DNA from: Vicinamibacterales bacterium
Lineage (GTDB): Bacteria; Acidobacteriota; Vicinamibacteria; Vicinamibacterales; UBA8438
Reading direction: 5' to 3'
NCBI GenBank assembly: GCA_965249175.1
Contig: OZ252227.1
Span: 2,299,699 to 2,363,698 of the forward strand
Length of the DNA: 64,000 nucleotides
The notes under the pieces are model-generated. The model had not been told where the DNA came from and ran no database searches. It saw only the letters and a program-made list of their open reading frames with translations. Of this stretch, positions 3,478 through 39,646 are shown piece after piece. Made by a program: the position numbers and the translations under genes. Each line of letters starts with the position of its first letter. The first letter of the stretch is position 1.

Positions 3478-3693
3478 ATGGCGCTGACCGTCGGCTCCCG
3501 CCTCGGCCATTACGACGTGACCGACCTCATCGGCGAGGGGGGAATGGGGCAGGTCTATCGCGCCACCGACACCCAACTGGGCCGCGACGTCGCGCTGAAG
3601 ATTCTCCCCGACGCCTTCGCCGCTGACCCGGACCGGCTCGCCCGGTTCCAGCGGGAAGCGCAGGTGCTGGCCACATGCGCTGCTGAATCCTGA
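3478..3693 (+). pseudogene. Ser/Thr kinase N-lobe fragment K1
   Basis: [27 protein letters not shown], then unrelated sequence and stop. Confidence 0.9.
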
Positions 3694-3738
3694 AGACACG
3701 GAAACTCAGACTCTCGGGTGTCGACATTCCACCCGAGG

Positions 3739-5174
3739 GAGATATAACCAGAAGTTGTGGATCGGCAGTCTGAAGAAGGCGGCGTATCCTTTCGCGTGAG
3801 CAACGCGAAAACTCCGGCTGGCAGGCCGGTGAAAGGAGCCGCCACCCATGCTGAAGGTACTCGACAACGATGGAGCAGACAACGAAGTTCCGCCGGAAGA
3901 GCGCGGTGCGCAGACGGTGGACGAGCTGGCCCGGGAGGGAGCCCGGCGGATGTTGATGACGGCCCTGGCGGTGGAGGTCGGGCAGTACATCGAGGCCCAC
4001 GGCGAGGAGCGGGACGCGCGGGGACGCCGGCTGGTCGTTCGGAATGGTCGGGCCCAGGCGCGGAAGGTGACGTGCGGGGCAGGTACGCTCGAGGTGCATG
4101 CTCCTCGGGTGAACGACAAAAGGGTCAACGGCGCGGGCCAGCGGGAGCGGTTCACGAGTCGGATCTTGCCCCCCTACATGCGTCGCTCGCCCAAGGTGGC
4201 GGAGGTGCTGCCGATCCTCTATCTGCGCGGTCTGTCGACGGGCGATTTCCGCGAAGCGCTGCCGGTGCTATTGGGGGATGACGCGGCCGGCCTCAGCGCG
4301 ACCAACATCGCGCGCCTCACGGCGGTGTGGGAAGAGGACTACCGGCGGTTCCGCCAGCGGGACCTGGCCGATCGTGACTACGTGTACGTGTGGGTCGACG
4401 GCATCCATTTCAACATCCGGCTCGAGGACGATCGGCTCTGTACGCTGGTGATCCATCGGCGTACGGCCCGATGGGACCAAGAAGCTCGTGGCCCTGGAGG
4501 ACGGCTACCGCGAGAGCACCGACAGCTGGGCGACGGTGCTGCGGGACCTCCAGCGGCGCGGCATGCGGGCCCCGGTGGGGGCGGTCGGCGACGGCGCCCT
4601 GGGTTTCTGGGCGGCCGTGCGCGACGTGTGGCCGGACACGCGAGAGCTCCGCGACTGGTGTCACAAGATGGGCAACGTGCTCGACAAATTGCCAAAGCGA
4701 TTACAGCCGAAAGCGAAGCGCGCGCTCCGCGAGATCATGTACGCCGAGACGCGGGCACACGCCGAGGAGGCCATGGACGTCTTCATCGCCGAGTACGAGG
4801 CCAAGTACCCGAAGGCGGCGGCGTGCCTGGACGCAGACCGCGACCGCCTCCTCACGCACTTTGCCCTGCCAGCTGAGCATTGGCAGCACGTGCGCACGAG
4901 CAACGTCATCGAGTCGCCATTCGCCACGGTCCGACTCCGGCAGCGCGTGACCAAAGGCGCGGGCTCGCGCACCAAGGGCCTGTTGATGGCCTACAAGCTG
5001 CTCGAGATGGCACAGCAGCGCTGGCGTCGGCTCAATGGCGCGCATCTGCTGCCACTCGTCCGCGCCGGCGTGACGTTCATTGACGGGGTACAGCAGGAGC
5101 GAAACAACGAGGGAGATCGGAAGGTGGCCGCCTGATCACGCTGATGACCGATCCACAACATTTGACAATATCTC
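3739..5174 (+). mobile_element. IS256 type A copy 2 (frameshifted transposase)
   Basis: Ends GAGATATAACC../..GACAATATCTC; 9-bp TCCACCCGA duplication with extra GG on the left. Confidence 0.95.
3848..5135 (+). pseudogene. IS256 transposase with +1 C at about 4453
   Basis: GTGATCCATC versus GTGATCATC in intact copies. Confidence 0.9.
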
Positions 5175-5340
5175 TCCACCCGACGTCTGCGGGCGGAACG
5201 GCCTGCCCGGCATCTGTGCGTTCGTTCGAGAGGACGGGTTCTGTCTGGCTCCGCCCAAGACCTGGCCGAAACGGTTTCGGACACTTCGACAGAGACCTCC
5301 ACCGCTGGCAAGCATCGGGCGGCCAGCGAAGCCCTCGCCC

Positions 5341-5378
5341 GCCGCATGAACGTCCCCGAGACGACGGCTCCGAGCTAG
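5341..5378 (+). repeat. 3' tail remnant of a kinase-TolB-TPR gene (RMNVPETTAPS*)
   Basis: Similar to RRMNFPETAATA* at 30763-30801. Confidence 0.55.
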
Positions 5379-5393
5379 CCCAGCGGCCTCCCC

Positions 5394-5493
5394 GTCTCTC
5401 CTGTCCGCTCGTTGCACACCGCCTGCCCCTCCGAGGCCGTGATCAGCCCCGGGCGGTGGCATAATCAACCCCAGTTCCTATCCCACAGGAGGG
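5394..5493 (+). repeat. ~100-bp promoter/RBS repeat, copy 2
   Basis: Aligns with 3050-3153. Confidence 0.75.
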
Positions 5494-5676
5494 ACCCGGC
5501 GCTGATCTGTGTCAGCGTGCGGCCAGACTCGTTCACGCGACGCGGCACACGGGGTCTCATGCGGGCAGGACTCGCGAAGACGGTGTCTCGATCCCAGACG
5601 GCATTGAAGCCCACCATGACCACGACGCGCCGGCCGGGGCACCGCCTTGAAAACTTTGAGCATGCGGACGTGGTCG

Positions 5677-7105
5677 GAGGGTGAGCTAATCTTAGTTGAA
5701 AATTGAAACGGCTCCAGACCCTGTGGTGTGATGACGTTGCAAAAGACGGACATCACCCCACGAGAGAGAGGAGCCACGATGAGTGTCCTACGTGCTGTCA
5801 GGAAGCGCAAGAAAGTTCGCAAGCTGGGCTCGGTCAACATCATTCACCGCGAGGCCTACGCGGATCTGGAGCTGGACGCGAAGGTGGAGCTGATCCGCTC
5901 GCTGGTGCCCCTGGGCCTGATGCATGTGCAGGAGTTGCTCGACCAGGAGGTGACGGCGCTGGCGAGCGAGCGCTACGTCCGGAAGGACGCGTCGGTCGGT
6001 GGACGCCGTCACGGCAGTAACCCTGGGACGGTGGGTCTCGCGGGGCAGCGCGTGCCGATTCGCGTGCCCCGGATTCGTCGCCTCGCAGGGAGCGAGATTC
6101 CGCTGCGGTCGTATGCGGCGTTGCATGACGACCGCGAGGTGGACGACGCGCTGCTGCGACGGGTGCTCTACGGGATCTCGTGCCGCAACTACGCGGCGGC
6201 CGCGGCGGCGATTCCCGGGGCGATCGGGCTGTCGAGTTCGACGGTGTCCCGGGGGTTCATCCAGGCCAGCGCGGCGCAGCTACGGGCGTTCCAGGAGCGG
6301 GACCTATCCGATGAGGACGTGGTGGCCGTGTTCCTGGACGGCAAGACGTTCGCTGACGCGACGATGGTCATCGCGCTAGGCATCACGCTGTCTGGGGAGA
6401 AACGCTTCCTGGGCTTCGTCGAAACGGACACGGAGAACGCGACGGTGCTCACACCGTTCCTGCGGTCGTTGGTCGAGCGGGGCCTCGACCTCTCCCAGGG
6501 TGTGCTGGTCATCCTCGATGGCGGCAAGGGGCTCCGCACGGCCGTCCGGAAGGCCTTCCGGGGCCGGGCCCTGGTCCAACGGTGCCAGTGGCACAAGCGC
6601 GAGAACGTGGTGAGCTACCTGGCCAAGCACGAGCAGGCGGTGTGGCGTCAGCGTCTCCAGCGAGCGTACAACCGGCCGGACTACGACGAGGCCCTCGGTG
6701 CGCTCGAGACGCTCCACGGCGAGTTGGACGAGCGGAACCAGTCGGCGGCTGACAGCTTGGCGGAAGGCCTGGACGAAACCCTGACGTGACATCGATTGGG
6801 CGTGTACGGAGTGCTGGGCCGGTCGCTGAAGACGACGAACTGTCTGGAGTCGGTCAATGCGCTGGTCGAGGAACGCTGCGCGAAGGTAGATCACTGGCAG
6901 AGCTCGAGCCAACGCCACCGCTGGCTGGCGACCGCCCTCCTGGACATCGAACCGCGCTTACGAAGGGTGAGGGGCTACCGCCACCTTCCCACGCTTCGGG
7001 CCGCATTGAAGCGAGAACTGAAGATCGACACGACGACGTCGAAGAAGCAGGCCGCGTAAGCCATCGGGAGCCGTGGAGAGTTTCAACTAAGAATGGGCTT
7101 GACTC
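5677..7105 (+). mobile_element. IS256-family element type B, copy 1
   Basis: IRs ..CTTAGTTGAAA/TTTCAACTAAG.., 8-bp duplication CGTGGTCG. Confidence 0.95.
5728..7059 (+). pseudogene. IS256 type B transposase with premature TGA at 6787-6789
   Basis: TTA (Leu) at the same position in the intact copy 47412-48743. Confidence 0.9.
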
Positions 7106-7223
7106 CGTGGTCGCACACGCCCTGCAAGCACGGCGCAACCGGCGTCCGATCTGACCAACCCGTTCACGAGGGAACGCGCCGCGCGTGGCGGAAATCCTGG
7201 CGGGGACCGGGCGGGGCCGGGTG

Positions 7224-7397
7224 ATGCAGCTTGATGAACGTGTCGTCGGCGATGTGACCGTGCTGGCACCGTCCGGCCGGATGACGCGGGACGAGAACTT
7301 TTGCGCGGTGAACCGTCGAGTCGAGGCGCTGGTCGACGCGGGTCAGCGCAAGCTGGTGCTGGACTTGGGGGCGGTGTATATGGACAGCTCGGGCGTG
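7224..7397 (+). pseudogene. STAS / anti-sigma-factor antagonist N-terminal fragment
   Basis: ERVVGDVTVLAPSGRM..KLVLDLGAV-YMDSSG, then breaks off. Confidence 0.7.
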
Positions 7398-7557
7398 ACG
7401 TGTGCCCCCCCCTTGCCCCAGAGCGCCGTGAAGCCCACGAAGCACGCGAACGACGGGTTTCTAGAGGGTGGGGGGACCACGGCGGGACGAACGCCGCTAG
7501 GACGGTGGTCGCGGCGTAGAATGAGTCGCGGCGTCCGACCACCCGATAGACAAGCTG

Positions 7558-7605
7558 ATGGCCCTCGAAGTCGGCTCCCGGCTCGGCCACTACGACGTGA
7601 CCGCC
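7558..7605 (+). repeat. Ser/Thr kinase 5' fragment K2
   Basis: [16 protein letters not shown], near-identical to the K1 and K3 starts. Confidence 0.85.
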
Positions 7606-7631
7606 AGGCGCCCAACATAGGAGGTGCAACG

Positions 7632-8033
7632 ATGCGGACGATGGTAGTCGCCACAGCGGGGACGCTCGTGTTGGCAGGTAGCGTGATTCTCGGGCAGCAG
7701 ACTCGACGACAGCCTAGTGCCGAGCCGATCTTTGTCCCTGGGCCTGCAGAGGTCGTTGGGAGCGTGAGCATTACCAACGAACCGACCGTGCAGGCTCAGC
7801 AGGCGGGGATGTGGGAGGTGACGCTGGCGGATCAGGTTGCGCTCGTGATCCCGACTCCCGAGTTCATCGTCGTTGGCCAGACCTATCGCTTCACATGGTC
7901 GGGGAGCGACGCGGCTCGCACCTATCAGGTGCTCGCGCTCGCGGAGAACGGCTGGGTGGCGGCTGCCCCGGTCGTCGGAGGAGACCGCATGTGGCTCAAC
8001 ACGTCGCTCGCCACGAGCATCGAGCCGCTATAG
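7632..8033 (+). CDS. Secreted hypothetical protein
   Basis: AGGAGG RBS, signal-peptide-like N-terminus MRTMVVATAGTLVLAG. Confidence 0.65.
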   Translation: MRTMVVATAGTLVLAGSVILGQQTRRQPSAEPIFVPGPAEVVGSVSITNEPTVQAQQAGMWEVTLADQVALVIPTPEFIVVGQTYRFTWSGSDAARTYQVLALAENGWVAAAPVVGGDRMWLNTSLATSIEPL

Positions 8034-8051
8034 ATTCTGTCAACGGCCCAT

Positions 8052-8435
8052 ATGTCATCGAAGAACACCCAGGCAGCGAGGGACGGCCGGGACCCGATTG
8101 TTGTCGAGGCACAGCGCTACCTCGATCAGCGGGACAAGACCTATCGGGAGCAAGCGCTCAAGATCTATCCCTGGATCTGTGCGAAGTGCGGTCGCGAATT
8201 CAGCGGCAAAAAGCTTCGCGAGCTTACCGTCCATCACAGGGACCACAACCACGACAACAATCCACCCGATGGGAGCAACTGGGAGTTGCTGTGTCTCTAC
8301 TGTCACGAAAACGAGCACGCGCGGAATCAGGTAGCTGACGCGTATGATGCGGCGACCTCGGGCGAGGAGCGAGAGCCCACGTCGACCTACAAGCCGTTCG
8401 CTGATCTTGCGGATGTGTTGAGGCGCAACGAATAG
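8052..8435 (+). CDS. yajD: YajD-family HNH nuclease
   Basis: [52 protein letters not shown]. Confidence 0.88.
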
Positions 8436-8599
8436 CTGCAGCTATGGCCCTGACCGTCGGCTCCCGCCTCGGCCATTACGACGTCACTGCCCTCATCGGC
8501 GAGGGCGGGATGGGCCAGGTCTATCGCGCCACCGACACGCAACTGGGCCGCGACGTCGCGCTGAAGATCCTTCTATGAAGCGGCTTGTCAAGTCACCTC

Positions 8600-8958
8600 G
8601 TTGTTCGTCGAAGCTCTCACGCTCTCCGATACACCCTCCAGTGAGCGCGCCGTCCCCGCACCCAGCTGGGGGGCGCGCGCGAACGGGTCGGCAGCTCGGT
8701 GTGCTGTCCACGGGCCCGGATTTCGGTCGCTAGGGTAACAACCTGCTTAGACGCGCCGGGCTGAAGCCGCGAGGTGCGTCATCCTTCTATTCGCGCTCGA
8801 CAAGGGCGATCTCTGATCGCCGGCGCAAGAGACGATCCGAATGGGGGGCGGCACCATCTCCCTGCCGGCCTCGCGTGCGACCAAGGATCTTCACGTGCTC
8901 ACCCACCAACCCTGCAACCCCGGACCTCACTCAGTGGCCCGACCGCACCACCAAGGAC
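8600..8958 (-). ncRNA. Predicted bridge/seek RNA of the IS1111 element (ends approximate)
   Basis: Guide-like matches to target (8884-8893, 8858-8866) and donor (8784-8790) inside stem-internal-loop structures. Confidence 0.75.
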
Positions 8959-9999
8959 TTACCCGCTCATCCCGTGCGGCACTGGGACCCCGACGCGGCG
9001 CCCGTCATAGACCGTCTGGTCCCGCCACATCGCAAACAGGATCCCCGCCAACCGGCGCGCGACGGCCACGGTGGCGATGCGCCGGCCGCGGCGCGTGGCC
9101 AGTTGCTCGGCCCAGGCGCGCAGGCCCGCGGCCTCCGCCCGGCGAGACCGGAGCGCGGCCCACGCGGCTTGCACCAGCAACCAGCGCATGCGCGGATTGC
9201 CCGCCTTCGTAATGTGGCCCCGACGGTGGCGGTCCGCAGAGCTGTCCTCGCTGGGCACCAAGCCGAGAAAGCTCTCGACCTGGTGGGCCCCGCCAAAGCG
9301 CCCCGCCTCATCCAGCGTCGCGACGAATGCCGTCGCGATGAGGGGGCCTACCCCGGGGGCGGTAGTCAACCGCTGTACCACCGGGTTGGCCGCCGCCGTC
9401 TCGATGACCTGGGCATCGGCCACGGCGAGCTGCGCGGTCAACTGTTCCCACAGGGCGAGCAGCGGCTGGAGCGCCGCCTGTAACTCGTCGGGGAGCTCCA
9501 GCTCCGTCACATACGTACCGAATCGGTCGGCATCCCCGGCCCGGACGCGCAGTCCCTCCCGCCGCACCAGCGCCCGCACCAAGGCGATGGTGCGCCCGCG
9601 GGTCCGCCCGAGCAGGTCGCGCACCCGGAGCTGGCGCCGCACCCGATGCTGGGCGGCCGACACGCGATGCGCCGGGCGATAGGAACCGAGTCGGGCCGCC
9701 TCGGCCAGCATCCGCGCATCGCGCCGATCCGTCTTCACACGCCGGCGCCGTTCGGGATACATCGGGGCGTAGTTCGGATCCGCCACGATGACCTCGTGGC
9801 CGCACTGCTCGATCGTCTGCGCCACCCATTCGCTTTCCGTCGTCGCCTCGAGGAGCACCCGGGCACACGGTCGGCTCCCGAACATCTTCGTGAACTGCTG
9901 CCGCGTACTCTGAATCCGTCGTTCGATGATCTCGCCCTCGGACGTGAGGATGCAGATTTGACTTTCTCTCTTATGGACGTCGATGCCAATATGCTCCAT
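8959..9999 (-). CDS. IS110 DEDD recombinase/transposase
   Basis: HIGIDVHK, VLLEA, KTDRRDA, PGVG, GLVPSEDSS, ITKAGN, VAVARRL. Confidence 0.95.
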   Translation of the reverse strand: MEHIGIDVHKRESQICILTSEGEIIERRIQSTRQQFTKMFGSRPCARVLLEATTESEWVAQTIEQCGHEVIVADPNYAPMYPERRRRVKTDRRDARMLAEAARLGSYRPAHRVSAAQHRVRRQLRVRDLLGRTRGRTIALVRALVRREGLRVRAGDADRFGTYVTELELPDELQAALQPLLALWEQLTAQLAVADAQVIETAAANPVVQRLTTAPGVGPLIATAFVATLDEAGRFGGAHQVESFLGLVPSEDSSADRHRRGHITKAGNPRMRWLLVQAAWAALRSRRAEAAGLRAWAEQLATRRGRRIATVAVARRLAGILFAMWRDQTVYDGRRVGVPVPHGMSG

Positions 10000-10197
10000 G
10001 GCTGGTCTCCCTCTGTGCGCCTTGAGCGCGTTTGAAAAATGTGGAGCGCAAGCTACCACGTGGGGACGACCAGCCGCTTCATCCTATCTCCCCGACGCCT
10101 TCGCGGCTGATCCGGGATCGGCTCGTCCGGTTCGGGCGGGAAGCGCAGGTTCGGGAGTCTGTGTCCTGACAAGAACCCGACCCGTCCCGAGTGCGAA

Positions 10198-10385
10198 ATG
10201 AACCTCGTCATCATCGCATTGGTGCTCGTCCAAGCGACATTGTCGCCTCGCGAGGCGTACGCGCCCTACAACCAGTTCACCGAGTTCGATCGTCATTTCT
10301 CGAAGTACAGCAAGCGGTACTTCGGTCCGGCATTCGACTGGCGCTACTTCAAGGCCCAAGCCATCGCCGAATCTCGGTTGCAGGT
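10198..10385 (+). pseudogene. Lytic transglycosylase (SLT/MltF-like) N-terminal fragment
   Basis: Signal peptide then FDRHFSKYSKRYFGPAFDWRYFKAQAIAESRL; reads on in frame into K4. Confidence 0.7.
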
Positions 10386-10491
10386 AGCACTAAGCGAAAC
10401 TGTTCACCCTAGCCCCAGCGACCCGGCAAGACGACGATCCCGCCCGCTGACGGACTACAATCCCCGTACTTCCCCAGAACCCAGGAGGATC

Positions 10492-10692
10492 GTGCCACTG
10501 ACGCCCGGCGTACGGCTCGGAGCGTACGAAGTCACCGCCAAAATCGGCAGCGGCGGGATGGGGGAGGTGTACCAGGCGCTGGACACCAACCTGGATCGGG
10601 ATGTCGCGCTGAAAGTCCTGCCTGATGCCTTCACGTCGGATCCCGATCGCCTAGCCCGTTTCGAGCGGGAAGCCAAGGTCCTCGCCCGCTGA
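10492..10692 (+). pseudogene. Ser/Thr kinase N-lobe fragment K4
   Basis: TACAAT -10 and AGGAGG RBS; IGSGGMGEVY..VALKVLPDAF..RFEREAKVLAR*. Confidence 0.9.
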
Positions 10693-10697
10693 CCATC

Positions 10698-11597
10698 ATG
10701 TCCACAGCGCCGGATCCCGATACCGAGACGCCCACCGACGTGGGGCCCCGCCTCCGTGCCGCGCGGGAGGCAAAGCAGCTCTCACTGGGCCAGATCGCGG
10801 ACGCCACCAAGATCTTGATTGGTACGCTCGAAGCTGTTGAAACGCATGACGTTGCCCAGCTGCCTGGGGGCATCTTCACGCGCGGGGTCGTCCGCGCCTA
10901 CGCGGCCGAGGTCGGGCTCGACCCCGAACACACGCTGCGCGACTTCATGGCACAGGTGCCGTCCGAGTCCACCGCGGCCGCGACCTACGGGGACTGGCAG
11001 GAGGACGACGGCGGCCTGTTGGTGAGCCTGCCTCGGATCGATGAACCGTCGGGCGCGTTGGCTATTCTTAAACGGTGGCCCACGCTGTGGCTGGTCAGTG
11101 TGGCGGTAGTCGCCGTGTTGTTCTCTCTTTGGACGTTGTACCCACGGCCGTCCGCGGGGGAAGCACCACTGGCTCTGGTCAGCGACGCGGACCCCGCTCT
11201 ATCGTCCCGTCCGACCACCCCGTTGGGAGGCGACCCACTCCTCCCGAGCGAACCGGTTCCGCGGCTGACGGATCCCGGGACACCCGCAGCCCCGGCGTCG
11301 GTCGTGGCGTCAGCCGTGACCGCCCCGGGACCGCTCGCCACCCTCACCATCGTGTTGCGCGCGAGCCGCGAGTGCTGGGTGTCGCTGCGCGTCGATGGGC
11401 AGTTGGTCGTGCGTCATGTCATGCAGCCCGACGATAGCGAAACCCATCGGGCGGACGAGGAGATTGTGTTGAGCGTGGGTGACGCCGGGGCACTTGCGTT
11501 CTCGATCAACCAGCAGAACGGCCGACCACTCGGAGCGTCGGGCGAGGTGAAGACCGTGAGGATCACCCCCGACAACTACCGTGACTACGTGCGATGA
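10698..11597 (+). CDS. RodZ-like protein (HTH_25, TM, DUF4115)
   Basis: VGPRLRAAREAKQLSL..LPGGIFTRGVVRAYA; TM; CWVSLRVDG..VGDAGAL..PLGASGEV. Confidence 0.85.
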   Translation: MSTAPDPDTETPTDVGPRLRAAREAKQLSLGQIADATKILIGTLEAVETHDVAQLPGGIFTRGVVRAYAAEVGLDPEHTLRDFMAQVPSESTAAATYGDWQEDDGGLLVSLPRIDEPSGALAILKRWPTLWLVSVAVVAVLFSLWTLYPRPSAGEAPLALVSDADPALSSRPTTPLGGDPLLPSEPVPRLTDPGTPAAPASVVASAVTAPGPLATLTIVLRASRECWVSLRVDGQLVVRHVMQPDDSETHRADEEIVLSVGDAGALAFSINQQNGRPLGASGEVKTVRITPDNYRDYVR

Positions 11598-11608
11598 GCG
11601 AGCGTTCC

Positions 11609-11659
11609 AAAGCCCGTGACACCCGCCTGGACCGCACCATCGCCATCAAGGTGCTGCCC
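11609..11659 (+). repeat. Ser/Thr kinase internal fragment K5
   Basis: KARDTRLDRTIAIKVLP. Confidence 0.75.
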
Positions 11660-11782
11660 ACCCTTCGGAGCGCGAATGGCTAACGCCTCGGCCACAAGAC
11701 AACGCGTTGGTCCACGGCGGGCGCACCTGCAACCCACCAGTTGGGAAACCGCTCGACTTACCGGCGTCCTGGCTGGGTCTAG

Positions 11783-13250
11783 CAGCCCGTGGTGAAAGTC
11801 CCTATTAGGGATCGACACGATCGATCCCGCGTACTACACTGTCGCGCATGGCGATGGGCAAACGACGACGCCGGGCGCGGCAAGCATCGATGTGGGTTCC
11901 CACCAGCGACCTGCCTCGCAGTGCGGCGCATCCGTTCTATCAGCGATTGAATCGGATCCTCGATGACACGGGCTTCGACGCGTTCGTCGAGGCGCAATGC
12001 GCGCCGTTCTACGCGGACGGCGTCGGTCGTCCGAGTCTGGCGCCGGGGCGGTACTTCCGGCTGCTGATGCTCGGCTACTTCGAAGGGCTGGACTCGGAGC
12101 GGGCGATCGCGTGGCGGGCGGCCGATTCGCTGAGCATCCGGCAGTTTCTGGACCTCGAGCTGCACGAGGCGCCGCCGGATCACTCGACGCTGTCGCGCAC
12201 CCGGCGCCTGATCGACGTCGAGACCCATCAAGCGGTGTTCACGTGGGTGCTGCAGCAACTGGCCGACGCCCAGCTCGTGACCGGGCGGACCCTCGGCATC
12301 GATGCCACGACGTTGGAAGCGAACGCCGCATTGCGGAGTATCGTGCGCCGGGACACGGGCGAAGGCTACGAGGCGTTTCTGACCGGGCTGGCCGAGGCGT
12401 CCGGCATCGTCACGCCGACCCGCGCTGAGCTGGCCCGGTTCGACCGGAAACGGAAGAAGAAAGGCTCCAACGACGACTGGACGCATCCGCAGGATCCGGA
12501 CGCGAAGATCACGAAGCTGAAGGACGGGCGCACGCACTTGGCGCACACCGCGGAGCATGCGGTGGACCTGGAGACGGGGGCCATCGTCGGCGTCACCGTG
12601 CAGGATGCCGACGACGGCGATACGACGACGATGGTCGAGACCCTGATCACGGCGGCCGACCACGTCGAAGCCGTCCTGCCGGCCGGCGCCGGTATCGCCG
12701 AGGTCGTCGGGGACAAGGGGTATCACAGTAACGAGACGATGGTGGCGTTCGCCGCGCTCGGCGTGCGCAGTTATGTTTCGGAGCCGGACCGCGGGCGACG
12801 CAACTGGACAGGCAAGGCGGCGGCGCGCGACGCCGTGTACGCGAACCGTCGGCGCATTCGGGGCACGCGTGGGCAACGGCTGCTGCGACGGCGGGGCGAG
12901 TTGCTCGAACGCCCCAACGCGCATCTCTACGAGACCGGGCGGCTGCGCCGGGTGCATCTGCGTGGGCATCCCAACATCCTCAAGCGCGTGCTTGTGCACG
13001 TCTGCGGGTTCAATCTTGGGCTCCTCATGCGGCAGCTGACGGGCGTCGGCACGCCGCGGAGCCTCCAAGGCCGCGCGGTCGCCGTCTTCGAGGCCTTGAT
13101 CGCTGATCTTGGCCGCCTCTGGACCCTCGTATCGCCCGCGTGGGCGCGAGATGCGCAAGATCTGCCGCACTCGTCGTTTCTCGACCTTATGACACGGTGT
13201 CACGAACACATGCCCCTCGACCTACGAAAGGGCGTTTTCACCACGGGCTG
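11783..13250 (+). mobile_element. IS1182/IS5-like element with CTAG target
   Basis: IR CAGCCCGTGGTGAAA/TTTCACCACGGGCTG, CTAG duplicated. Confidence 0.92.
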
Positions 13251-13254
13251 CTAG
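11848..13254 (+). CDS. DDE transposase (DUF772 N-terminus)
   Basis: GRPSLAP..SERAIAWRAADSLS..PDHSTLSRTR..IDATT..GDKGY. Confidence 0.92.
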   Translation: MAMGKRRRRARQASMWVPTSDLPRSAAHPFYQRLNRILDDTGFDAFVEAQCAPFYADGVGRPSLAPGRYFRLLMLGYFEGLDSERAIAWRAADSLSIRQFLDLELHEAPPDHSTLSRTRRLIDVETHQAVFTWVLQQLADAQLVTGRTLGIDATTLEANAALRSIVRRDTGEGYEAFLTGLAEASGIVTPTRAELARFDRKRKKKGSNDDWTHPQDPDAKITKLKDGRTHLAHTAEHAVDLETGAIVGVTVQDADDGDTTTMVETLITAADHVEAVLPAGAGIAEVVGDKGYHSNETMVAFAALGVRSYVSEPDRGRRNWTGKAAARDAVYANRRRIRGTRGQRLLRRRGELLERPNAHLYETGRLRRVHLRGHPNILKRVLVHVCGFNLGLLMRQLTGVGTPRSLQGRAVAVFEALIADLGRLWTLVSPAWARDAQDLPHSSFLDLMTRCHEHMPLDLRKGVFTTGC

Positions 13255-26171: not shown

Positions 26172-26235
26172 GCGCGACACGCTCTGTATGGTCAGACGGC
26201 CGGGCAGTCAGATCGGTTGCGGCGATTCGGGAACA

Positions 26236-27442: not shown

Positions 27443-27817
27443 ATGTCCCTTGCCCCCGGCGCCCAGCTCGGCCCCTATTCGATCACCGCTGAAATCGGCC
27501 GCGGTGGGATGGGCGTCGTGTTCTTGGCCCAAGACCCCCGCTTGAAGCGCCAGGTCGCGATCAAGCTCCTGCCACCCGACCTGACCCGCGACGAGACGGC
27601 CAAGCAGCGGTTCCTGCAGGAAGCCCAAGCGGCGTCGGCGCTGGATCATCCCAACATTTGCACGATCCACGAGATCAACGAGACAACCGACGGGCAGCTC
27701 TACCTCGTGATGGCCCACTACGCGGGGGAGACGCTCAAGGAGCGGATCGCGGGAGGGCCGTTGGCACTGGATGACGCCATCGACCGCCGCCGGAGTAGGC
27801 TCCTAGGATCCCCATGA
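27443..27817 (+). pseudogene. Ser/Thr kinase N-terminal fragment K6
   Basis: IGRGGMGVVF, VAIKLLP, EAQAASALDHPNI; stops before HRD. Confidence 0.9.
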
Positions 27818-30720
27818 TCATCGCTGAGGCCATCATGCTTCTTTCGGTGGCGACGGCCGGGCCGGCCGAGCGTGGCCCGGAGCCTCACCCCATCGCGTCA
27901 GGACCGGTCCGCGCTGCCCAGGCGGCGCCAGCAGCCGCCGCGGACGACAGCGTCGCCATTATCGCCTTCTCCAACATCTCTCGGATCGCGGAGGACGACT
28001 GGATCGGCACAGGCATCGCCGAAGCCCTCACCGTCGAGCTCGGGCGTGCCAACGACCTGTCTGTTTTGGGGCGTCAGGCGGTCTCGGGCGCGTTGGAGAA
28101 CGTGAGCAGCGCAGACGGCATTGCTGGAGCGACAGCGCTTGCCGCAGGCCGCCTCCTCGGCGTGCAGTGGGTCCTCAGTGGCGGCTACCAGCGGGTGGGC
28201 GACCAGATGCGCATCACGGCGCGGGTCGTGGACGTGGCGACCGCCACCGAGGTGCACACGGCGATCGTCGACGGCGCGCTGGCGGAGCTGTTCGCCTTAC
28301 AGGACCGGCTCGCTGCCGACCTGAGACGCGGGCTGTCGGGCGCGGGTGGTGCAATCGCGACGTCGGGGACGGCTCGCACACCAACCAGCAGCGAGGCGGT
28401 CCCTCCCACCGTTGATCCTCCCGGACCGGCACCGGACGGCGTCGCGACGGCGTCTGGCCGCAGCGGCTTCACGGCGGCGCCCGTCGGCTTCATCGATGGC
28501 CCTGCACCGCCAGTGGCGCCGGAGACGATGACACGCGATGCCGCCGGACGCGTCACGGTGCGGGCGGTCCGGCTCACCGAACCGTTCCGCCTCGACGGCG
28601 CGCTCGACGAAAGCGTCTACGAGACGGTGCCGCCCGTCGGCGGCTTCCTTCAGCAGTTGCCCGATGAGGGGGCGCCCACAACCGAACGGACCGAGGCGTG
28701 GGTCTTCTACGACGACAGCACCGTGTATGTCGGCGCGCGCTTGTGGGACTCGGCGCCCGAGTCACAGTGGATCGCCAATGAGATGGTGCGCGATTCGTTC
28801 CAGCTCGTGAACAACGACTACTTCAGCGTCGCGTTCGACACGTTCTACGACCGGCGCAACGGCGTGTCCTTCATGGTCAACCCGATTGGCGGCTTCATGG
28901 ACTACGAGATCTCCGACGAAGGGTTCTCCAACGCCGACTGGAACCCCATCTGGGACGTGAGGACGGGCCGATTCGACGGGGGCTGGACCGTCGAGATGGA
29001 AATCCCCTTCAAGTCCCTCCGTTATCGGCCGGGCGCATCGCAGATCTGGGGATTCCAGCTCGGGCGGGCGATTCGCTGGAAGAACGAACAGACCTATCTG
29101 ACGCCGGTGCCGGCCTCCGCCGGGCCAGGCGAGTTCCGTCTGTCCGTGGCTGGCACCCTGACCGGCGTGGAAGTCCAGCCGGGCAACAGGACGCTGGAGG
29201 TCAAGCCATACGCGATCGGCTCGCTCGCCACCGACGTCAACGCCGTCCCGCGCATCTCGAACGACGGTGACGGCGACTTTGGATTCGACGTCAAGTATGG
29301 GGTCACCCAGAACCTGACGGCGGACTTCACCTACAACACCGATTTCGCCCAAGTCGAAGTCGACCAGCAGCAAGTGAACCTGACGCGGTTCAGTCTCTTC
29401 TTCCCCGAGAAGCGCGAGTTCTTCCTCGAAGGACAAGGCATCTTCGACTTCGGGCGCGGCGTCACCATCATCGGCGGGGGTTCCGGCGGGGTCCAGCGCG
29501 GCGGGGGCGGCTTCTTCGGAGGTGGCGACGTGCCCACGCTCTTTTTCAGCCGGCGGATCGGGCTGGAAAGCGGACAGGCCGTCCCGATTCTGGGGGGCGG
29601 CCGGCTCACCGGCAAGGCCGGCAAGTTCAGCATCGGGGCCGTAAACATTCAGACGGACGACGCCCCGAGCGTCGGCGCCCTGTCGACCAACTTTACCGTC
29701 CTCCGGGTCAAACGCGACATCCTGCGCCGTAGCCGTATCGGCGGCATCTTCACCGGCCGGTCGGTGTCGACGGTGGGCGCAGGATCGAACGAGGTCTACG
29801 GCCTTGACGCGCTCTTTTCGTTCTACGACAACGTGAACTTCAACGGCTACTATGCCCGGACGCGCACGCCCGGATTGGACGGCGACGACGCGAGCTACCA
29901 GGGAAGGTTCAACTACACCGGCGACCGCTACGGCTTCGAGCTCGACCACCTGCGGGTCGGCGACCACTTCAACCCGGAAATCGGATTCCTCCGTCGTGAC
30001 GACTTCCGGCGCACCTTCACGACGGCGCGGTTCAGCCCTCGGCCTGCCTCGATTCGCGCGGTGCGCCAGTTTACGTGGGAAGCCAGCCTCGACTACATAC
30101 AGAACGGCGCCGGGCTAATCGAGACGCGAATCGCGCAGGCCCGGTTCGAAACGGAATTCGAGAACACTGATCGGTTCGGCGTCGATGTCCAGCAGAGCTA
30201 CGAGCTCCTCGTCCAGCCCTTCGCGATCGCGACCGACGTCACGATTCCGGTCGGCGCCTACGACTTCGAGGACTTCTTCGTGTCTTATTCCATGGGGGCC
30301 CAACGGCGGGTGTCAGGCAACCTCTCGTTCCAGCGCGGCGAGTTCTTCGGCGGGCACATCACGGCGGTCGGATTTGGCGGCGGATTTGGAGGCGGCCGGG
30401 TCGAGGTGACACGGCAGTTCTCAATCGAGCCGGGCCTGTCCATCAATCGGATCGATCTCCCGCAAGGCAACTTCACGGCGACGCTGGTCCAGAGTCGTGT
30501 GACCTACACCCTGACCCCGCGGATGTTCGTCGGTGGTTTGCTGCAATACAACAACAGCACTGATTCGTTCAGCACCAACGTCAGGCTGCGGTGGGAATAT
30601 CAGCCGGGGAGCGAACTGTTCGTCGTTTACAATGACCAGCGCGATACGTCACTTCGCGGCACGCCGTTCCTCGAAAACCGCGCCTTTATTGTCAAGTTCA
30701 CGCGGCTGTTTCGGTTCTGA
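27814..30720 (+). CDS. TolB-N/CsgG-like domain + CBM9-like + DUF5916 outer-membrane protein
   Basis: SVAIIAFSN..DWIGTGIAEAL..GGYQRVGDQMRITAR; GWTVEMEIPFKSLRY; NTDFAQVEVD..NLTRFSLFFPEKREFFLEG; C-terminal F. Confidence 0.85.
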   Translation: MIIAEAIMLLSVATAGPAERGPEPHPIASGPVRAAQAAPAAAADDSVAIIAFSNISRIAEDDWIGTGIAEALTVELGRANDLSVLGRQAVSGALENVSSADGIAGATALAAGRLLGVQWVLSGGYQRVGDQMRITARVVDVATATEVHTAIVDGALAELFALQDRLAADLRRGLSGAGGAIATSGTARTPTSSEAVPPTVDPPGPAPDGVATASGRSGFTAAPVGFIDGPAPPVAPETMTRDAAGRVTVRAVRLTEPFRLDGALDESVYETVPPVGGFLQQLPDEGAPTTERTEAWVFYDDSTVYVGARLWDSAPESQWIANEMVRDSFQLVNNDYFSVAFDTFYDRRNGVSFMVNPIGGFMDYEISDEGFSNADWNPIWDVRTGRFDGGWTVEMEIPFKSLRYRPGASQIWGFQLGRAIRWKNEQTYLTPVPASAGPGEFRLSVAGTLTGVEVQPGNRTLEVKPYAIGSLATDVNAVPRISNDGDGDFGFDVKYGVTQNLTADFTYNTDFAQVEVDQQQVNLTRFSLFFPEKREFFLEGQGIFDFGRGVTIIGGGSGGVQRGGGGFFGGGDVPTLFFSRRIGLESGQAVPILGGGRLTGKAGKFSIGAVNIQTDDAPSVGALSTNFTVLRVKRDILRRSRIGGIFTGRSVSTVGAGSNEVYGLDALFSFYDNVNFNGYYARTRTPGLDGDDASYQGRFNYTGDRYGFELDHLRVGDHFNPEIGFLRRDDFRRTFTTARFSPRPASIRAVRQFTWEASLDYIQNGAGLIETRIAQARFETEFENTDRFGVDVQQSYELLVQPFAIATDVTIPVGAYDFEDFFVSYSMGAQRRVSGNLSFQRGEFFGGHITAVGFGGGFGGGRVEVTRQFSIEPGLSINRIDLPQGNFTATLVQSRVTYTLTPRMFVGGLLQYNNSTDSFSTNVRLRWEYQPGSELFVVYNDQRDTSLRGTPFLENRAFIVKFTRLFRF

Positions 30721-30726
30721 CGCGTG

Positions 30727-30801
30727 CCCCCTCCGCGCCGACCCCCGCTTCCGGGCCCTCCTCCGCCGCATGAACTTCCCGGAGACGGCGGCAACGGCTA
30801 G
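30727..30801 (+). repeat. 3' tail remnant of a kinase-TolB-TPR gene
   Basis: PLRADPRFRALLRRMNFPETAATA, the typical C-terminus of these proteins. Confidence 0.75.
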
Positions 30802-31348
30802 CAGCCCGTGGTGAAAGTCTTGAATTAGATCGATCGCCAGAATCGATCGCGGTTCCTATACTCGGCGTATGGCGATGGGTACGAAACGGAAGCGCAACCG
30901 TCAACGGTCCATGTGGATCGCGACAGCGGATCTCCCGCAGAGCGCCGGGCATCCCTTCTATGAGCGGCTGAATCGTGTACTGGACGACGCGGGCTTCGAC
31001 ACCTTCGTCGAGGCGCAGTGCACGAAGTTCTATGCCGAGGGCCTCGGTCGCCCCAGTGTGACGCCGGGCCGCTGTTTCCGGTTGCTGCTGCTCGGCTACT
31101 TCGAAGGGCTGGACTCGGAGCGGGCGATCGCGTGGCGTGCCGCTGATTCGCTGAGTATTCGGGACTTCTTGGACTTTGATCTGCATGAGGCCCCGCCGGA
31201 TCATTCGACGCTGTCGCGCACGCGCCGACTGATTGACGTCGAAACGCATCAGGCGGTCTTCACCTGGGTGTTGCAGCGACTGGCGGACGCTGACCTCGTG
31301 CACGGGCGCACGATTGGGATTGATGCGACGACGCTCGAGGCCAACTGA
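30802..31348 (+). mobile_element. Truncated IS1182/IS5-like element (relative of 11783-13250); CDS fragment 30869-31348
   Basis: CTAG plus CAGCCCGTGGTGAAAGTC left end; protein ends at IDATTLEAN. Confidence 0.9.
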
Positions 31349-35107: not shown

Positions 35108-38100
35108 TCAGCCTTTGAGGTCCCATCGCCCCGGGGCGAACACGCCGACTGTGCGCTTGGGGTCTGCGAACCCCTGATCCCGCAGCCAGCCGTCGGCGGT
35201 CTCCACGAGGTCGTGTCCCTCCCCGCCACCGACCAGCGTTCCGAGTCGTCGCTGCACGGCGGCCCGACGCAGCTTCATACCGCCCTCGTCGAACCCCCGG
35301 TCGGCGCGCCGTAGCCAGGCGACCGCGGCCTCCCGATCGTCCTGGTAGCTGGCGATGCCGGCGCGGATCAGCGCGCCCAGTGGCGGTCCCCACGCGACGC
35401 CCTCGCGCTCGAGCCGTCTGGCGTCGGCCGCGGCCAGACGAAAGTGTGAGCGGATCGTCTTCGGGTCGAGCCCGGCGCTAGCGGAGGCCAGTGCGGCTCG
35501 GGCGCGCTGGTCGTGCCGGTTCATCCTGGTCGACTGCTCGAGCAGCCGCACCGCCGCTGCGGTAGACCAGTGATCGGTCACGAACGCCCAAGCGATGTCG
35601 GCCGGACCGGCATACAGCAGGAACTCGCCCTGGCGATACAGGCTCGACGCGCGCTGGAACGTCGCGTGGCTGGTCGAGAACCTGGACATGGCGGCATCGA
35701 TGTCCTCGACCGCAGCCTGGGGCGCGTTGTCCGCGAAGCAGGTAACGCTGGCGCGGTGAATCCGCATGGAAACCTCTCCGTAGAGATTGCCTTGTTCGCG
35801 GGCCTCGCGGAGGTAGCCGGGCACGCGTCGGCGAAACTCCCGGAACTCTCCGGCCTCGAACAGACACTCCAGCGCGTAAACCCGGCAGGTCACCACCTCG
35901 GTAGCCAGTCCGGCGCATTGCTCCCGGAAGATGTGCCCCGCCTCATCGAGTTGCTCGCGGCCCTGCCGCCAGTGGCCGGCCATCATCGCGATCATCCCAG
36001 CGGACAGCTTCAACAGCCCCTGCATGCGCGGGTGCTCCCCCGCCAGCTCCGTGGCCCGTGACAGGAGGCGCCGGCCTCGCGGTCGGCTGCCCGCGCTGGC
36101 GGCGTCGGCCACCGCTTGGAACGACAGCGCCAGGATCAGATGGCGAGTCTGCAGCTCGACGGCACGGACGATCGCGGTGTTGCTGAGCGCCCGGCAGGCA
36201 GACCGGCAGAAGTCGATGCGGAGGAGGTCCCCGGGAGCGACCTGCGTCTCGGAGCGCTGGTGAAACCGGACACCCCGCAGCAGCCGATACGGTAGCCAAA
36301 ACACCAGCGACAGCAGCGCGCGCCGTGGGGTGGACGCGAGCCGCAGCCCCACCACGGCCAGCACGTGACGGAAACAGGGTCATGCCCTCGTCGACGTGTC
36401 CCCCTAGCAACAGTTGCTCGGCGGCGAGGCGGTTCAGCTCGAGCTGCTCGCTGGCCGAGGCGTCTATCACGGCGGCCCGGTAGGCGCGGGCCGCGTCGAT
36501 CGGGCGGCCCGCGCTGGCGATGGCGTCTCCGAGTTTCACCGCGAGCGGGAGCTCGGTGGCGCCGGTGGACGTCTCGTCTCGCCGGTCGCCCAGGGCGGTG
36601 GACAGTTCTTCGCTACGCCGGTGCTCCCAGCCGTTGGACGCCGGGCGAGCCTGCGCGGTGGGGGAGCGGGCCGGCCGCAGAGTCGCGGCCCGCCGGTAGA
36701 GCTCGGCGGCGCGGTCGAACGCCAGGGACTCGCTCGCCTGGTCGGCGGCAGCCTCGGCATATCGGGCCGCTCGCGCCAGGTCGCCGGCTCCCTCGAAGTG
36801 ACGCGCCGGCGCCTCGGGGTCGGCCTGACCGGTCGCCTCAAGGGCCAGTGCCAGCCGATTGTGATGTCCCCGTCGCGCGTCGGGTGACAGCGCCGCGGCG
36901 ATCGCCTCCCGGATACGGTCGTGATACGGCTCGACCTGGGTGTCGCCGTCGAGCACGGCCGTGCGGATGAACTGGGCGGCGCGAAGGGGAGCCAGCACGT
37001 CGAAGTCCGACGAATCGAGGGCCGCGGCCTCCGTTGCCACCGACAGTGGAACTGGGCGCCCCGCCACCGCGGTCACCTCCAGCAGTCGTCTCGACTCGGT
37101 TGGCAGCTGAGCGGCCCGGGCGTCAAGCAGGCGGCCCAGGTTTGCCTCGGCCTCGCCGACTTCCCCGTGACGCGCGAGTTGGGCGATGAAAAAGGGGTTG
37201 CCGCCAGCCTCGCTAGCGATACGGTTGGCCCGTCCTGCCACACCGGCCGCTCCCGGTCCGATCAGCGTGGCGGCCAGCTCCCGAGACTCGGCATTCGAAA
37301 GTTCGGTCACTAGGACCTCGGCCACGTGAGCCTCGGGGCCTACCAGCTCGCGTATCGGCAGGAGCCGGGCGAGGGTGGGGCTCGTCGACGCGTCCTCACT
37401 GCGATAGCAAAACAGCAGCAACAACGAGGGGGCATCGGGAGGGCGGAGCAGCTCGCCCAGGAGGTCGGCGCTGTCGGCGTCGCCCCACTGCAGGTCGTCG
37501 ATGACGAGCACCAGGGGTGACCGTTCTGCCAGGCGGCCGAGCAGCTCCCGTAATGCGCCGAACGCCCGGCGGCGGATCTCGAGGGTGTCGGGGATCGCGG
37601 CCTCCCGCCGAGGCGTCCCGACGATCGCGGGGACCTGGCGTAGCACGGGGAAGACCCGGGCCAGCGCGGTGACCCTGCGTGGAAGCAGCGACTCTCCCCG
37701 GTCCCGGGGCAGGCGCCGAAGATACTGGCTCAACGCGTCGACCACGCTGTCGAGCGCCTTGAACGGCACTGCTTCCTGCTCGAAACACCGCCCCTGTAGC
37801 ACCACGGTGTCACGAGCCGGGTCCAGCAAGGTCTGCAGGAACTGGCGGATGAGCACGGTCTTGCCGAGCCCCGAGCGTCCCCGGACGCCTACCACGGCCG
37901 TCCGGCCATCGTTCATCGCATCGAATCCGGCACGCAGCGTGCGCAGCTGTTCGGCACGGCCGACGAAGGCCGACCCGGCGGCGGGCTGACGGACGGCGGC
38001 CGGGACCCGAGCACCCCCCGTACCCCCCAGACGCGCCAGTATCTCGCTGCCGGGTGGTCGGGCGTCTGGCACTCTCTGCAGCAGCTCGAGACAGAGCGTC

Positions 38101-38495
38101 TCGAGATCCTGGGGGACGCCGGTCACCAACGCGGAGGGAGAGGTCGGATCGCGGTACCGTTTGTCCCACAGGAGCTGGAGCACATCGCCGGTGAACGGCA
38201 GCAGGCCCGTGAGCGCCCGATACAGCACGACGCCGAAGCTGTACCAGTCCGAGGCCTCCGTCGCGGTTTGGTTCGACGCCTGGTTCTCGTGCGAGACGCC
38301 GGCGAGGGTACGGAACTCCCGCTTGAAGCGATACTAGGCGCCGGCATCGTCGACCCGATGCAAAGCCTTGAGCGCGATCACGGCGTCGTGATCGCGGTCG
38401 TGCACCTCGTAGACCACACCGAAGCTGCCGGCGCCGAGCCGGCGTCGGACGTGGAAGCGGTCGGTGCCGGAGAACTCGCTGGCCGCCTGCCCCAT
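35108..38495 (-). pseudogene. Ser/Thr kinase-AAA ATPase-TPR multidomain gene, degraded
   Basis: LGAGSFGVVY, IALK, internal TAG, jump from HEN to ASDWYSFG; FVGRAEQL, GRSGLGKT, VIDDLQWGD, GGNPFF; frameshift near 36370. Confidence 0.85.
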
Positions 38496-38599
38496 CTCGC
38501 GGTCAATCGTAGTCGACCGCGCACGGTGACGCGGCGGCGTTCACGGTGCAGCCGTGGAACCTCTCGGGCCAGGAGTTCGATTTCGATGCGGATGGAGCG

Positions 38600-38820
38600 G
38601 TGTTTCGTTCGAGTGGCACCCGGACAGCATTGTCTTTGAGAGTCGGAATTCCGGCGGTCAAATCCTCGAGTCGTGGATCTACGAAGGGTCAGGAATCCCG
38701 ACTCCGGGGAACGAGAAGGTGAGAATGAACGTGTGGTTGATCGGCGGCAATCCCCCGCGCGGGGGGCATTCAGAGGAAGTGATTGTCACGGACTTTGCGT
38801 TTCTGCCATTGGAGCCGTGA
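38600..38820 (+). pseudogene. Glycoside hydrolase (GH16-like) C-terminal fragment
   Basis: FEWHPDSIVF..IPTPGNEKVRMNVWL..EVIVTDFAF. Confidence 0.5.
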
Positions 38821-38967
38821 CACTGGAATAGCGACTGTGTCGTCCGACGCGAGGTCCTCGGGGTGGATTGGGATCGCGACTGGGAGGACTCGGACGTCCA
38901 TCTGCTGGCGTCATCCTCGCAGTCCGGGTCCGACGACCTCCAGCGTCTCGTCCCAACGCCCTGAAAC

Positions 38968-39081
38968 AACCGGTGTCCGGCTCGGATCCTGTGAGGTCAC
39001 GGCCTGCATTGGCGCTGGGGTATGGGGGGGGTCTACCGCGCCCGCGACACGACGCTCGACCGCGACCTGGCGCTGAACGTG
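38968..39081 (+). repeat. Degenerate kinase 5' fragment K7
   Basis: GVRLGSCEVTACIGAG/MGGVYRARDTTLDRDLALNV. Confidence 0.8.
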
Positions 39082-39329
39082 GGAGCAACGCGTGAATCGG
39101 CGTGTGCGGGCACGGGTGTGGTCTGTCACGGGGAGTTTTACCCTTTACCATGCGTGGCGCCGTCACGCCGACAGCCGCGTAGTTGAGCGCCACGTGCGCT
39201 GCGGGACGGGCCTGCGGCGGCGTTCCACGCTCATCCGCGGGCATCGAATCCCCTATTGGAGGGACGAGGGCTCCGGAGCCCGACGGGGGCGGTCGGACCT
39301 GGGCGGCACTACAATGACCCCCGTCACCG

Positions 39330-39646
39330 ATGTCCCTTGCCCCCGGCGCCCAGCTCGGCCCCTATTCGATCACCGCTGAAATCGGCCGCGGTGGGATGGG
39401 CGTCGTGTTCTTGGCCCAAGACCCCCGCTTGAAGCGCCAGGTCGCGATCAAGCTCCTGCCACCCGACCTGACCCGCGACGAGACGGCCAAGCAGCGGTTC
39501 CTGCAGGAAGCCCAAGCGGCGTCGGCGCTGGATCATCCCAACATTTGCACGATCCACGAGATCAACGAGACAACCGACGGGCAGCTCTACCTCGTGATGG
39601 CCCACTACGCGGGGGAGACGCTCAAGGAGCGGATCGGGCGTGGGCC
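39330..39646 (+). pseudogene. Ser/Thr kinase N-terminal fragment K8 (duplicate of K6)
   Basis: 39306-39636 reads identical to 27419-27749. Confidence 0.9.

Follow-up and report, generated by a model that had tools for sequence, protein, structure and literature searches.

Does a row of truncated kinase genes that share one strand and abut unrelated genes represent a gene-capturing cassette system, or the remains of a gene family in decay? The question is raised by a 64,000-nt stretch of a Vicinamibacterales genome (the window, G000:C1:2299699-2363698, within the single-contig, 6.64-Mb genome G000 of 65% G+C), in which an earlier note had seen an integron-like array where the conserved ends of a Ser/Thr kinase family serve as homology arms and promoter donors for captured cargo genes. 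Comparison with the rest of G000, with a separately assembled sister species (G001) and with other genera (among them G004 and G013) leads us to lean, with moderate confidence, towards family decay combined with insertion sequence (IS) activity and illegitimate or paralogue recombination, and not towards a dedicated cassette system. The sole clearly specific mechanism at this locus is that of a kinase-homing, putatively RNA-guided IS.

The kinase pieces of the window (Table 1) were delimited by searching its six frames with a hidden Markov model (HMM) of 276 positions built from 39 kinase domains of G000. All N-lobe pieces of the plus-strand series end by position 112 of 276 and none reaches the catalytic loop, the HRD and DFG motifs being absent from every plus-strand fragment, while the Gly-rich loop and the VAIK lysine are present in F1, F2, F3, F5 and F8; Pfam Pkinase matches the fragments at 3478, 10492, 27443 and 39330. 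The eight 5' fragments (heads) described earlier were borne out in their strand, their N-lobe content and their lack of HRD/DFG, but those at 8444 and 10090 are halves of one split head, and the piece at 11609, taken for a gene start, is internal to the N-lobe (HMM 22-44). Both 3' tails, at 5341 and 30727, are indeed class-B C-termini, the former degenerate, and T2 matches the C-terminus ...PLRADPRFQALLRRLNFPETAANG of the sole intact class-B kinase (737 aa). The common strand applies to the stub series; the minus strand carries another kinase-like gene (35943-38495), with one in-frame TAG (38334-38336) and a kinase domain that lacks HMM positions 72-188. HMM coordinates and open reading frames (ORFs) also uphold the short spacings, both between the break of a head and the start of its cargo (7605 to 7632, 10163 to 10198, 10686 to 10698 and 27784 to 27814) and between a cargo stop and the next fragment (8435 to 8444, 11597 to 11594/11609 and 30720 to 30727). 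The stop of F5 overlaps the ATG that follows it (ATGA), and F8 (39301-39646) and F5 are duplicates of 98.8% identity.

The fragments of the window are part of a genome-wide pattern. In G000, 212 HMM matches resolve into 130 kinase loci, of which 48 keep the whole kinase domain in one frame, 16 are split by a single frameshift (our own reading of the match list) and 68 are head-only stubs, defined by an HMM start at or before 10, an end at or before 130 and no continuation. Many stubs are visibly degenerate, with frameshifts and broken Gly-loops, and those of 65 aa or less visibly so; their break points are scattered over codons 23-67 and become sparse further on. The 5' ends are very conserved across the family and the 3' ends are conserved in class B, where one of nine tail motifs is still joined to an intact one-frame kinase. 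Because stubs and intact kinases form co-oriented clusters all over G000, the common strand of the window fragments follows from the family's own arrangement. Matches to the F1 head in open frames shorter than 150 aa make up 35 of 94 in G001 (our count), 3 of 8 in G004 and 0 of 3 in G007. Plain decay of a kinase cluster, which had been offered only as an alternative, fits better than a cassette system.

For the cassette architecture, 52 head-only stubs that abut unique DNA (those not followed by an IS110-family element) were set against 1500 random positions. A gene on the same strand starts no more than 100 nt from the break at 9/52 stubs versus 64/1500 positions (odds ratio 4.7, p 5e-4), and a convergent gene ends within that distance at 6/52 versus 46/1500; at 28 of the 52 stubs no gene boundary of either strand is reached in the first 100 nt past the break, and at 4 no ORF was called. 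Neighbours are in the same rather than the opposite orientation at 28:15 (43 stubs), or 32:16 when the 5 stubs with a break in an ORF are added, and a same-to-opposite ratio such as 28:15 is about the usual level for bacterial neighbours. Breaks respect neighbouring genes, yet without a regular cassette architecture. The comparison of orientation and distance with chance, which had been set beforehand as a test of the array, is divided in its outcome: tight gene starts are enriched, but the layout is irregular genome-wide.

The resemblance to integron cassette arrays consists of same-strand ORFs, very short flanks, a recurring element of 60-340 nt and a possible upstream promoter. Unlike integrons, the locus shows an irregular architecture, one join in microhomology and no integrase in the ORFs scanned, and unlike attC its spacer is a decaying kinase coding fragment of variable length and subfamily. 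Pfam found no integrase family in 46 ORFs of the 1-42 kb portion and 4 further ORFs of the window, chosen by third-position G+C (GC3) and length, where only DDE, DEDD and rve domains appeared, and no recombinase besides IS transposases occurs among 55 ORFs scanned. Ten inverted-repeat pairs were listed, none flanking a cassette in the manner of attC, in a search that used no dedicated attC model. Given the irregularity genome-wide, the degenerate stubs, the microhomology join, the scrambling by IS and the lack of a non-IS recombinase in the scanned ORFs, the idea of an integron-like capture array is given up here. Its promoter component fares better: in a 10-sequence alignment, a TACAAT/TATGAT (-10-like) box stands 9-14 nt before the ATG in 5/5 class-B heads, which makes a promoter hugging the kinase start codon plausible, and it is plausible that a kinase head would act as a promoter donor.

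The element that splits F2 has a far more regular relation to the kinases. Its DEDD transposase gene (8959-10059, minus strand) is followed downstream by a 387-nt non-coding region (8572-8958) and preceded by only 27 nt, and 11-bp subterminal inverted repeats (ATGAAGCGGCT...AGCCGCTTCAT) lie a few bases inside either end. Such repeats, and a long non-coding region on that side of the gene, are given as features of the IS1111 group in the seekRNA paper (PMC11187229). The insertion falls between the kinase codons LKIL and P, and 15 of the 16 near-identical copies in G000 occupy this same base of type-A heads, reading ...CTGAAGATCCT, element, CCCCGAC, always antisense to the kinase; the remaining copy sits at a similar non-kinase site. 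Since the kinase flanks of these copies are merely 88-97% alike, they represent 15 separate insertions. The element with kinase flanks is found also in G001 (90-91%) and in another genus (G004 locus L039, 80%), with the same target and orientation.

Two further copies, 80% diverged, occupy AAGGTGCT/CCCCG in a different kinase subfamily. Around position 313 of the IS, the main element carries AGGATCTTCA, the reverse complement of TGAAGATCCT and a 10-nt match to the left flank, while the diverged copies read AGCACCTT and AGGACCTT there, matching AAGGTGCT at 8/8 and 7/8 bases. The non-coding region gave no convincing match to the right flank, so that one of two expected target matches was found. 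The guide-like segment covaries with the target, which is a putative natural retargeting of the kind described in the seekRNA paper. Elements guided to specific targets by seekRNA or bridge RNA include ISEc11 (PMC11187229), ISPpu9 in repetitive extragenic palindromic (REP) sequences (PMC12288879) and IS621 (PMC11208160). The present element is like IS1111/IS110 members in its DEDD transposase, subterminal repeats, downstream non-coding region, single target and orientation, and in a target-matching non-coding segment that changes along with the target in diverged copies. It is unlike them in that its target, the codons just past the VAIK lysine, is coding sequence of a multi-copy kinase family and not an intergenic repeat or attC, and its guidance by RNA is putative. 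None of the titles and abstracts searched reports an IS110-family element targeting kinase genes; supplementary target lists might hold some.

The same element nonetheless did not make the stubs. G001 has the junction of an F2-type stub with the SLT gene but without the IS, and so the stub is older than the insertion and the IS1111-type element is not the stub maker. Copies near kinases amount to 15/16 for this element but to 4/36, 2/64 and 0/45 for the other main elements, against a background of 5.6%. IS-mediated truncation was tried as a general cause of the stubs and ruled out, since enrichment near kinases is confined to the IS1111-type element.

The window itself is heavily loaded with IS, a context absent from the earlier note: at least 12 copies of six or more families are present, which self-comparison and family searches identify as IS-A, IS-B, the IS1111-type and IS1182-like elements (Table 1) and IS3, IS3-like, IS1595 and rve elements. 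Full copies of at least 95% identity in G000 number 36 for IS-A, 64 for IS-B, 16 for the IS110-family element and 45 for the IS1182-like element. The IS-A copies at 3738-5174 and 42451-43887 are 100% identical to each other and share a base that is absent from the other copies; it breaks the transposase of both into two ORFs (3848-4876 and 4488-5135 in the first).

A region full of identical 1.4-1.5 kb repeats invites the suspicion that its junctions are false products of misassembly, which the earlier note had also listed. We consider this extremely improbable. The window junctions recur in the separately assembled G001 and at a second G000 locus, and the 16 copies of the 1515-bp IS110-family element agree to within one base (99.9-100% identity), as accurate assembly predicts; this near-identity indicates that the assembly is accurate and that the breaks are real and not sequencing noise. 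Contigs X1/X4 span three junctions (10150-10198, 10387 and 11597) without mismatches, leaving the F3/RodZ-like join (10565-10892) uncovered, and one contig record begins just 30 nt left of the 7605 junction; the X1/X4 runs are probably of the source sample and hence lend the junctions no independent support.

Examination of single junctions bears on how the breaks arose. F1, its next 62 nt and 5175-5560 are contiguous at 1.66 Mb of G000, behind a different head, which indicates that IS-A was inserted into a pre-existing remnant of head and tail. In G001 locus L018 a TonB-dependent receptor-like (TBDR-like) gene leads straight into sequence matching 5373-5676, to which a match to 7107-7388 is joined, an arrangement from which it follows that the window was cut up by IS-B and rearrangement. 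The F2 stub and SLT junction is kept at 92% in G001 locus L017. Between 10060 and 10387 the window and the 1.075-Mb locus are 98-99.5% identical, and the IS copies 99.9%, but the head to the left only 88%; this step in identity points to a copy anchored in the IS and ending abruptly at 10387. The SLT cargo proposed at 10198 does start on the same strand near a head, but it holds only 63 of the 150 codons of the SLT gene. F3 retains its native kinase upstream region over about 90 nt; the RodZ-like gene is attached to it through an imperfect microhomology, CTG(A/G)CCATC, where the kinase codons SLNHP meet the RodZ-like leader. A second RodZ-like copy at 19392-19832 is truncated and contains a TGA, and the probable housekeeping rodZ is at G000 2426223-2427044 (44% identity).

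The cargo behind F5, described earlier as DUF5916, matches that family only in part and is one member of a paralogous family with 37 matches. In this TBDR-like protein of 968 aa, residues ~30-180 share homology with a domain that stands directly after the class-B kinase domain, at G000 1659641-1660021, 2135450-2135827, 3173808-3174242 and seven more sites, and by this N-terminal homology the TBDR-like cargo and the host kinase share a module. Head, TBDR-like gene and tail form a composite in which all copies have one junction, ...GCCATCGAC / ~24 nt / ATGATCATCGCTGAG. The copies become alike no more than ~35 nt from the kinase ATG and stay so into the tail or the T-element, and the ATGA stop/start overlap is conserved among them. 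In the 61 family genomes, a junction-spanning query found 2 loci in G000, 4 in G001 and otherwise only a relic in G013. We read the composite as one old junction, later duplicated within the genus.

The G013 relic (L043, G013:C1:3123000-3129000, ~1981-2145, minus strand; 165 nt, 78% identity) reads ...AHYAGETLKERIGRGQL before a stop and lies upstream of a carboxylesterase gene. Proteins P0017, P0019, P0024 and P0026, from other public assemblies, are 119-aa N-lobe ORFs that reach the same ...LDDAID point and then end in SSMLE and a stop, a second junction at the same codon; such ORFs had no match in the 61 genomes searched. The T-element is a conserved non-coding stretch right after the class-B tail (3050-3182 and 5394-5523, core 3046-3125 and 5390-5470), with a near-invariant core of ~70 nt and 24-29 copies in G000 and further occurrences in G001 and G002. 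The element includes the extended -10-like sequence TGGCATAAT, has no Rfam match and is too highly conserved for covariation.

The composite is the point at which a recombinase-free exchange of cassettes has to be weighed. On this account the first ~200 nt and last ~80 nt of the kinases would serve as homology arms, and ectopic conversion or homology-facilitated illegitimate recombination would carry copies of the ORFs between head and tail to further kinase loci, where the kinase promoter would drive them. Consistent with it are the single junction shared by the G000 and G001 loci, the same tail module behind a type-A head in the window and behind a different head at 1.66 Mb, the IS-anchored copy of flanking DNA, and 124-aa ORFs with the same ending (...AID, 8 aa, GSP) on other public assemblies (ORFs P0004, P0009 and P0056). 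Ten full-length type-A kinases also fall in nucleotide identity from 0.85 (nt 1-126) to 0.44 (nt 1501-2400), and in nine of them, compared by codon, synonymous third-position identity drops from 0.67 to 0.45 in the 5' to 3' direction, with no such fall in two other subfamilies; this gradient points to exchange or conversion of heads. The family-wide codon profile is saturated and has no gradient.

Nevertheless, we regard such exchange as unlikely. A single origin with ordinary duplication suffices for composites that all share one junction, and flanks at ~80% coding identity would be unrecognisable in any case. The class-B head tree, with 3 of 16 inner branches supported, gives no resolution on a single origin of the composite heads, and in a windowed identity comparison, itself uninformative, these heads resemble one another no more than they resemble intact kinases. 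None of the window's other cargos recurs behind a different head, and spacing is irregular genome-wide. Nor is an orthologous locus comparable, as the kinase zones of G000 (such as the 20-kb zone L002) have no counterpart in G001. Of the proposal that kinase ends act as homology arms, the conserved ends, the multiplied unit, the tail behind two heads and the type-A gradient stand, but no capture system goes with them; conserved recombining ends and promoter-donating heads are possible contributors.

The mechanism that we propose for decay takes the window as an IS-saturated plasticity zone in which Hanks-type Ser/Thr kinase paralogues, arrayed in tandem on one strand, would be decaying. An RNA-guided IS1111/IS110-type element would have entered the LKIL/P codons of one subfamily, as seen in the split F2, and two IS256-family elements, one IS1182-like and one IS3-like element would have inserted in or beside remnants and rearranged them, as at F1/T1, F8 and T2. 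Microhomology or illegitimate joins, together with recombination between paralogues or IS copies, would then have deleted kinase bodies and pasted neighbouring DNA behind a head, of which the F3/RodZ-like join and the IS-anchored copy 8572-10387 are the instances observed. Heads may outlast bodies, with cargo starting close behind, because the kinase promoter would sit at the start codon; deletions that spare this promoter and the ribosome-binding site of the next gene would be tolerated or favoured, and repeated deletion would trim what lies between. The unit of head, TBDR-like gene and tail would be one such old junction, duplicated later within the genus.

Two known processes offer a comparison. 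Accumulation of pseudogenes and IS accompanies relaxed selection or an IS bloom, and the genome resembles such cases in its many truncated or frameshifted family members, hundreds of near-identical IS and a gene order rearranged relative to the sister species; it differs in that remnants are biased to the first ~25-65 codons and some units of stub and neighbour are conserved and duplicated. As in homology-facilitated illegitimate recombination or ectopic conversion, 8572-10387 and the F3/RodZ-like join have one side in homology and the other at a non-homologous or microhomology end; unlike in that process, the events here are deduced from end products within one genome.

Several results weigh against decay as the whole explanation. 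It accounts neither for the purifying selection on composite heads nor for the degree to which remnants come from the 5' end, which exceeds what plain decay would predict. Of the kinase fragments, 35/81 map to the first tenth of the protein, versus 29/230 for other genes, and detection by the HMM of 45-60 aa pieces stands at 0.93-1.00 throughout the domain, the exceptions being 45-aa pieces starting at 210 and 225 (0.67 and 0.88). Only 5/52 stubs break inside a coding ORF versus 1020/1500 random positions, and gene boundaries within 100 nt are 4-5 times commoner at breaks than at random positions. The retention of promoters is a step that we infer, and a sigma-70 consensus scan of 7100-11800 returned no promoter-like site. 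Moreover, the 1.5-kb flanks of TBDR-like and RodZ-like homologues from other genera are free of kinases, so that the cargo is not simply an old operon partner; an old operon of kinase and cargo was on this ground ruled out as a general origin. Finally, the six composite heads of the two species do not behave like junk, having a ratio of nonsynonymous to synonymous substitution (dN/dS) of 0.11-0.29 at dS 0.44-0.96.

This last value raises the possibility that certain stubs have a function, the N-lobe ORF of 112-124 aa before the TBDR-like gene being a small protein (a partner or decoy of kinases) or a coupled translated leader. Beyond the dN/dS, the frame is open through HMM 112/113 in four of the five composite copies that have a 5' end (the sixth, G000_3533, lacks the first ~35 codons), the ATGA overlap is conserved, and public data contain thousands of N-lobe ORFs of 68-217 aa, many on Mb-size contigs. 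We find function improbable all the same: one composite head has a Gly-loop G>V and another G>D plus frameshifts, gene conversion by intact paralogues could yield a low dN/dS, some of the short database ORFs are artefacts of contig ends or frameshifts, and the shorter stubs are degenerate. The composite head may persist by selection on the mini-ORF, by selection on the leader, or by gene conversion. Equally a long shot is a merger of these ideas, in which more than 100 kinase paralogues would exchange cassettes without a recombinase through RecA-type conversion, the IS landing pad adding homology and some N-lobe mini-ORFs being kept as leaders or decoys.

A new system, if true, would matter greatly, and the evidence points instead to ordinary processes on an unusual substrate. 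The kinase-targeting IS1111/IS110 element would be a natural case of a coding-motif landing site in a large paralogous family, and its 15 independent insertions and covarying guide segment may be useful for understanding site choice, retargeting and the wholesale inactivation of a regulatory gene family. With countable 5'-biased remnants, some of them under purifying selection, co-option of promoters or leaders and conversion of paralogue ends become testable.

Table 1. Kinase remnants, cargo genes and insertion sequences of the window, numbered from its first base.
Feature	Position	Strand	Basis and remarks
F1, type-A head stub	3478..3693	+	Homology 3484-3675, HMM 2-65, Pfam Pkinase 1-56; break after ...REAQVLA
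T1, degenerate class-B tail	5331-5378	+	Ends ...ALARRMNVPETTAPS and stop (5376-5378); within remnant 5175..5560
16-codon type-A kinase start	7558..7605	+	blastn only, 84-92% to other heads
ORF, no family found	7632-8033	+	Followed by YajD-family HNH gene 8052-8435, NF008448 161.9 bits
F2 left part, codons 1-42, type A	8444..8571	+	8450-8572, HMM 2-42; 43-53 similar copies in G000
IS1111/IS110-type element, 1515 bp	8572..10086	-	PF01548 (5e-18) and PF02371 (3e-22); NF033542 (IS110 family RNA-guided transposase) 256 bits, cut-off 140
F2 right part, ~codons 43-66, frameshifted	10087..10163	+	10116-10163, HMM 51-66
SLT gene 5' piece, 63 codons	10198-10387	+	Full 150-aa protein at G000 1.075 Mb
F3, other kinase subfamily, native upstream region and head stub	10409..10692	+	10498-10686, HMM 2-64; break after ...REAKVLA
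RodZ-like gene, extra paralogue	10698..11597	+	HTH_25 and RodZ_C
F4, internal N-lobe piece	11594..11662	+	HMM 22-44; 117 nt upstream of IS1182-like element
F5, class-B head, 124-aa ORF	27443..27817	+	27449-27784, HMM 2-112, Pfam
968-aa secreted protein (TBDR-like)	27814..30720	+	Partial DUF5916 match; family with 37 G000 matches
T2, class-B tail	30727..30814	+	PLRADPRFRALLRRMNFPE..., reads ...PLRADPRFRALLRRMNFPETAATASSPW and stop; runs into IS1182-like 5' fragment 30798-31345
Kinase-like and AAA_16 (STAND-type) gene	35943-38495, kinase-like part 38052-38468	-	Pfam/NCBIfam, HMM; outside the plus-strand series
F7, frameshifted head stub	38966..39081	+	HMM 3-23 and 21-41, two frames
F8, class-B head	39330..39689	+	39336-39647, HMM 2-104; cut at 39647 beside IS3-type element
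IS3-type element, rve domain	39746-40267	-	Adjoins F8 cut at 39647
IS-A, IS256-family element (1437 bp)	1-501 (-), 3738-5174 (+), 14330-15765, 16563-17997, 42451-43887, 49863-51298		Self-comparison; Transposase_mut, NF033543
IS-B, second IS256-family element	5675-7105 (+), inverted copy 47366-48796		Self-comparison; Pfam/NCBIfam transposase matches
IS1182-like element	Full 11780-13254; 5' fragment 30798-31345		Self-comparison, family search

Outside these features, Rfam at the gathering threshold gave no match in the window. A 67-aa ORF of coding-like composition (3226-3429, plus strand) lies between a T-element copy and F1, and a possible prophage remnant occupies 24375-27129 on the minus strand, with ORFs of 480 and 420 aa and one weak match to a terminase large subunit (E 0.0028).

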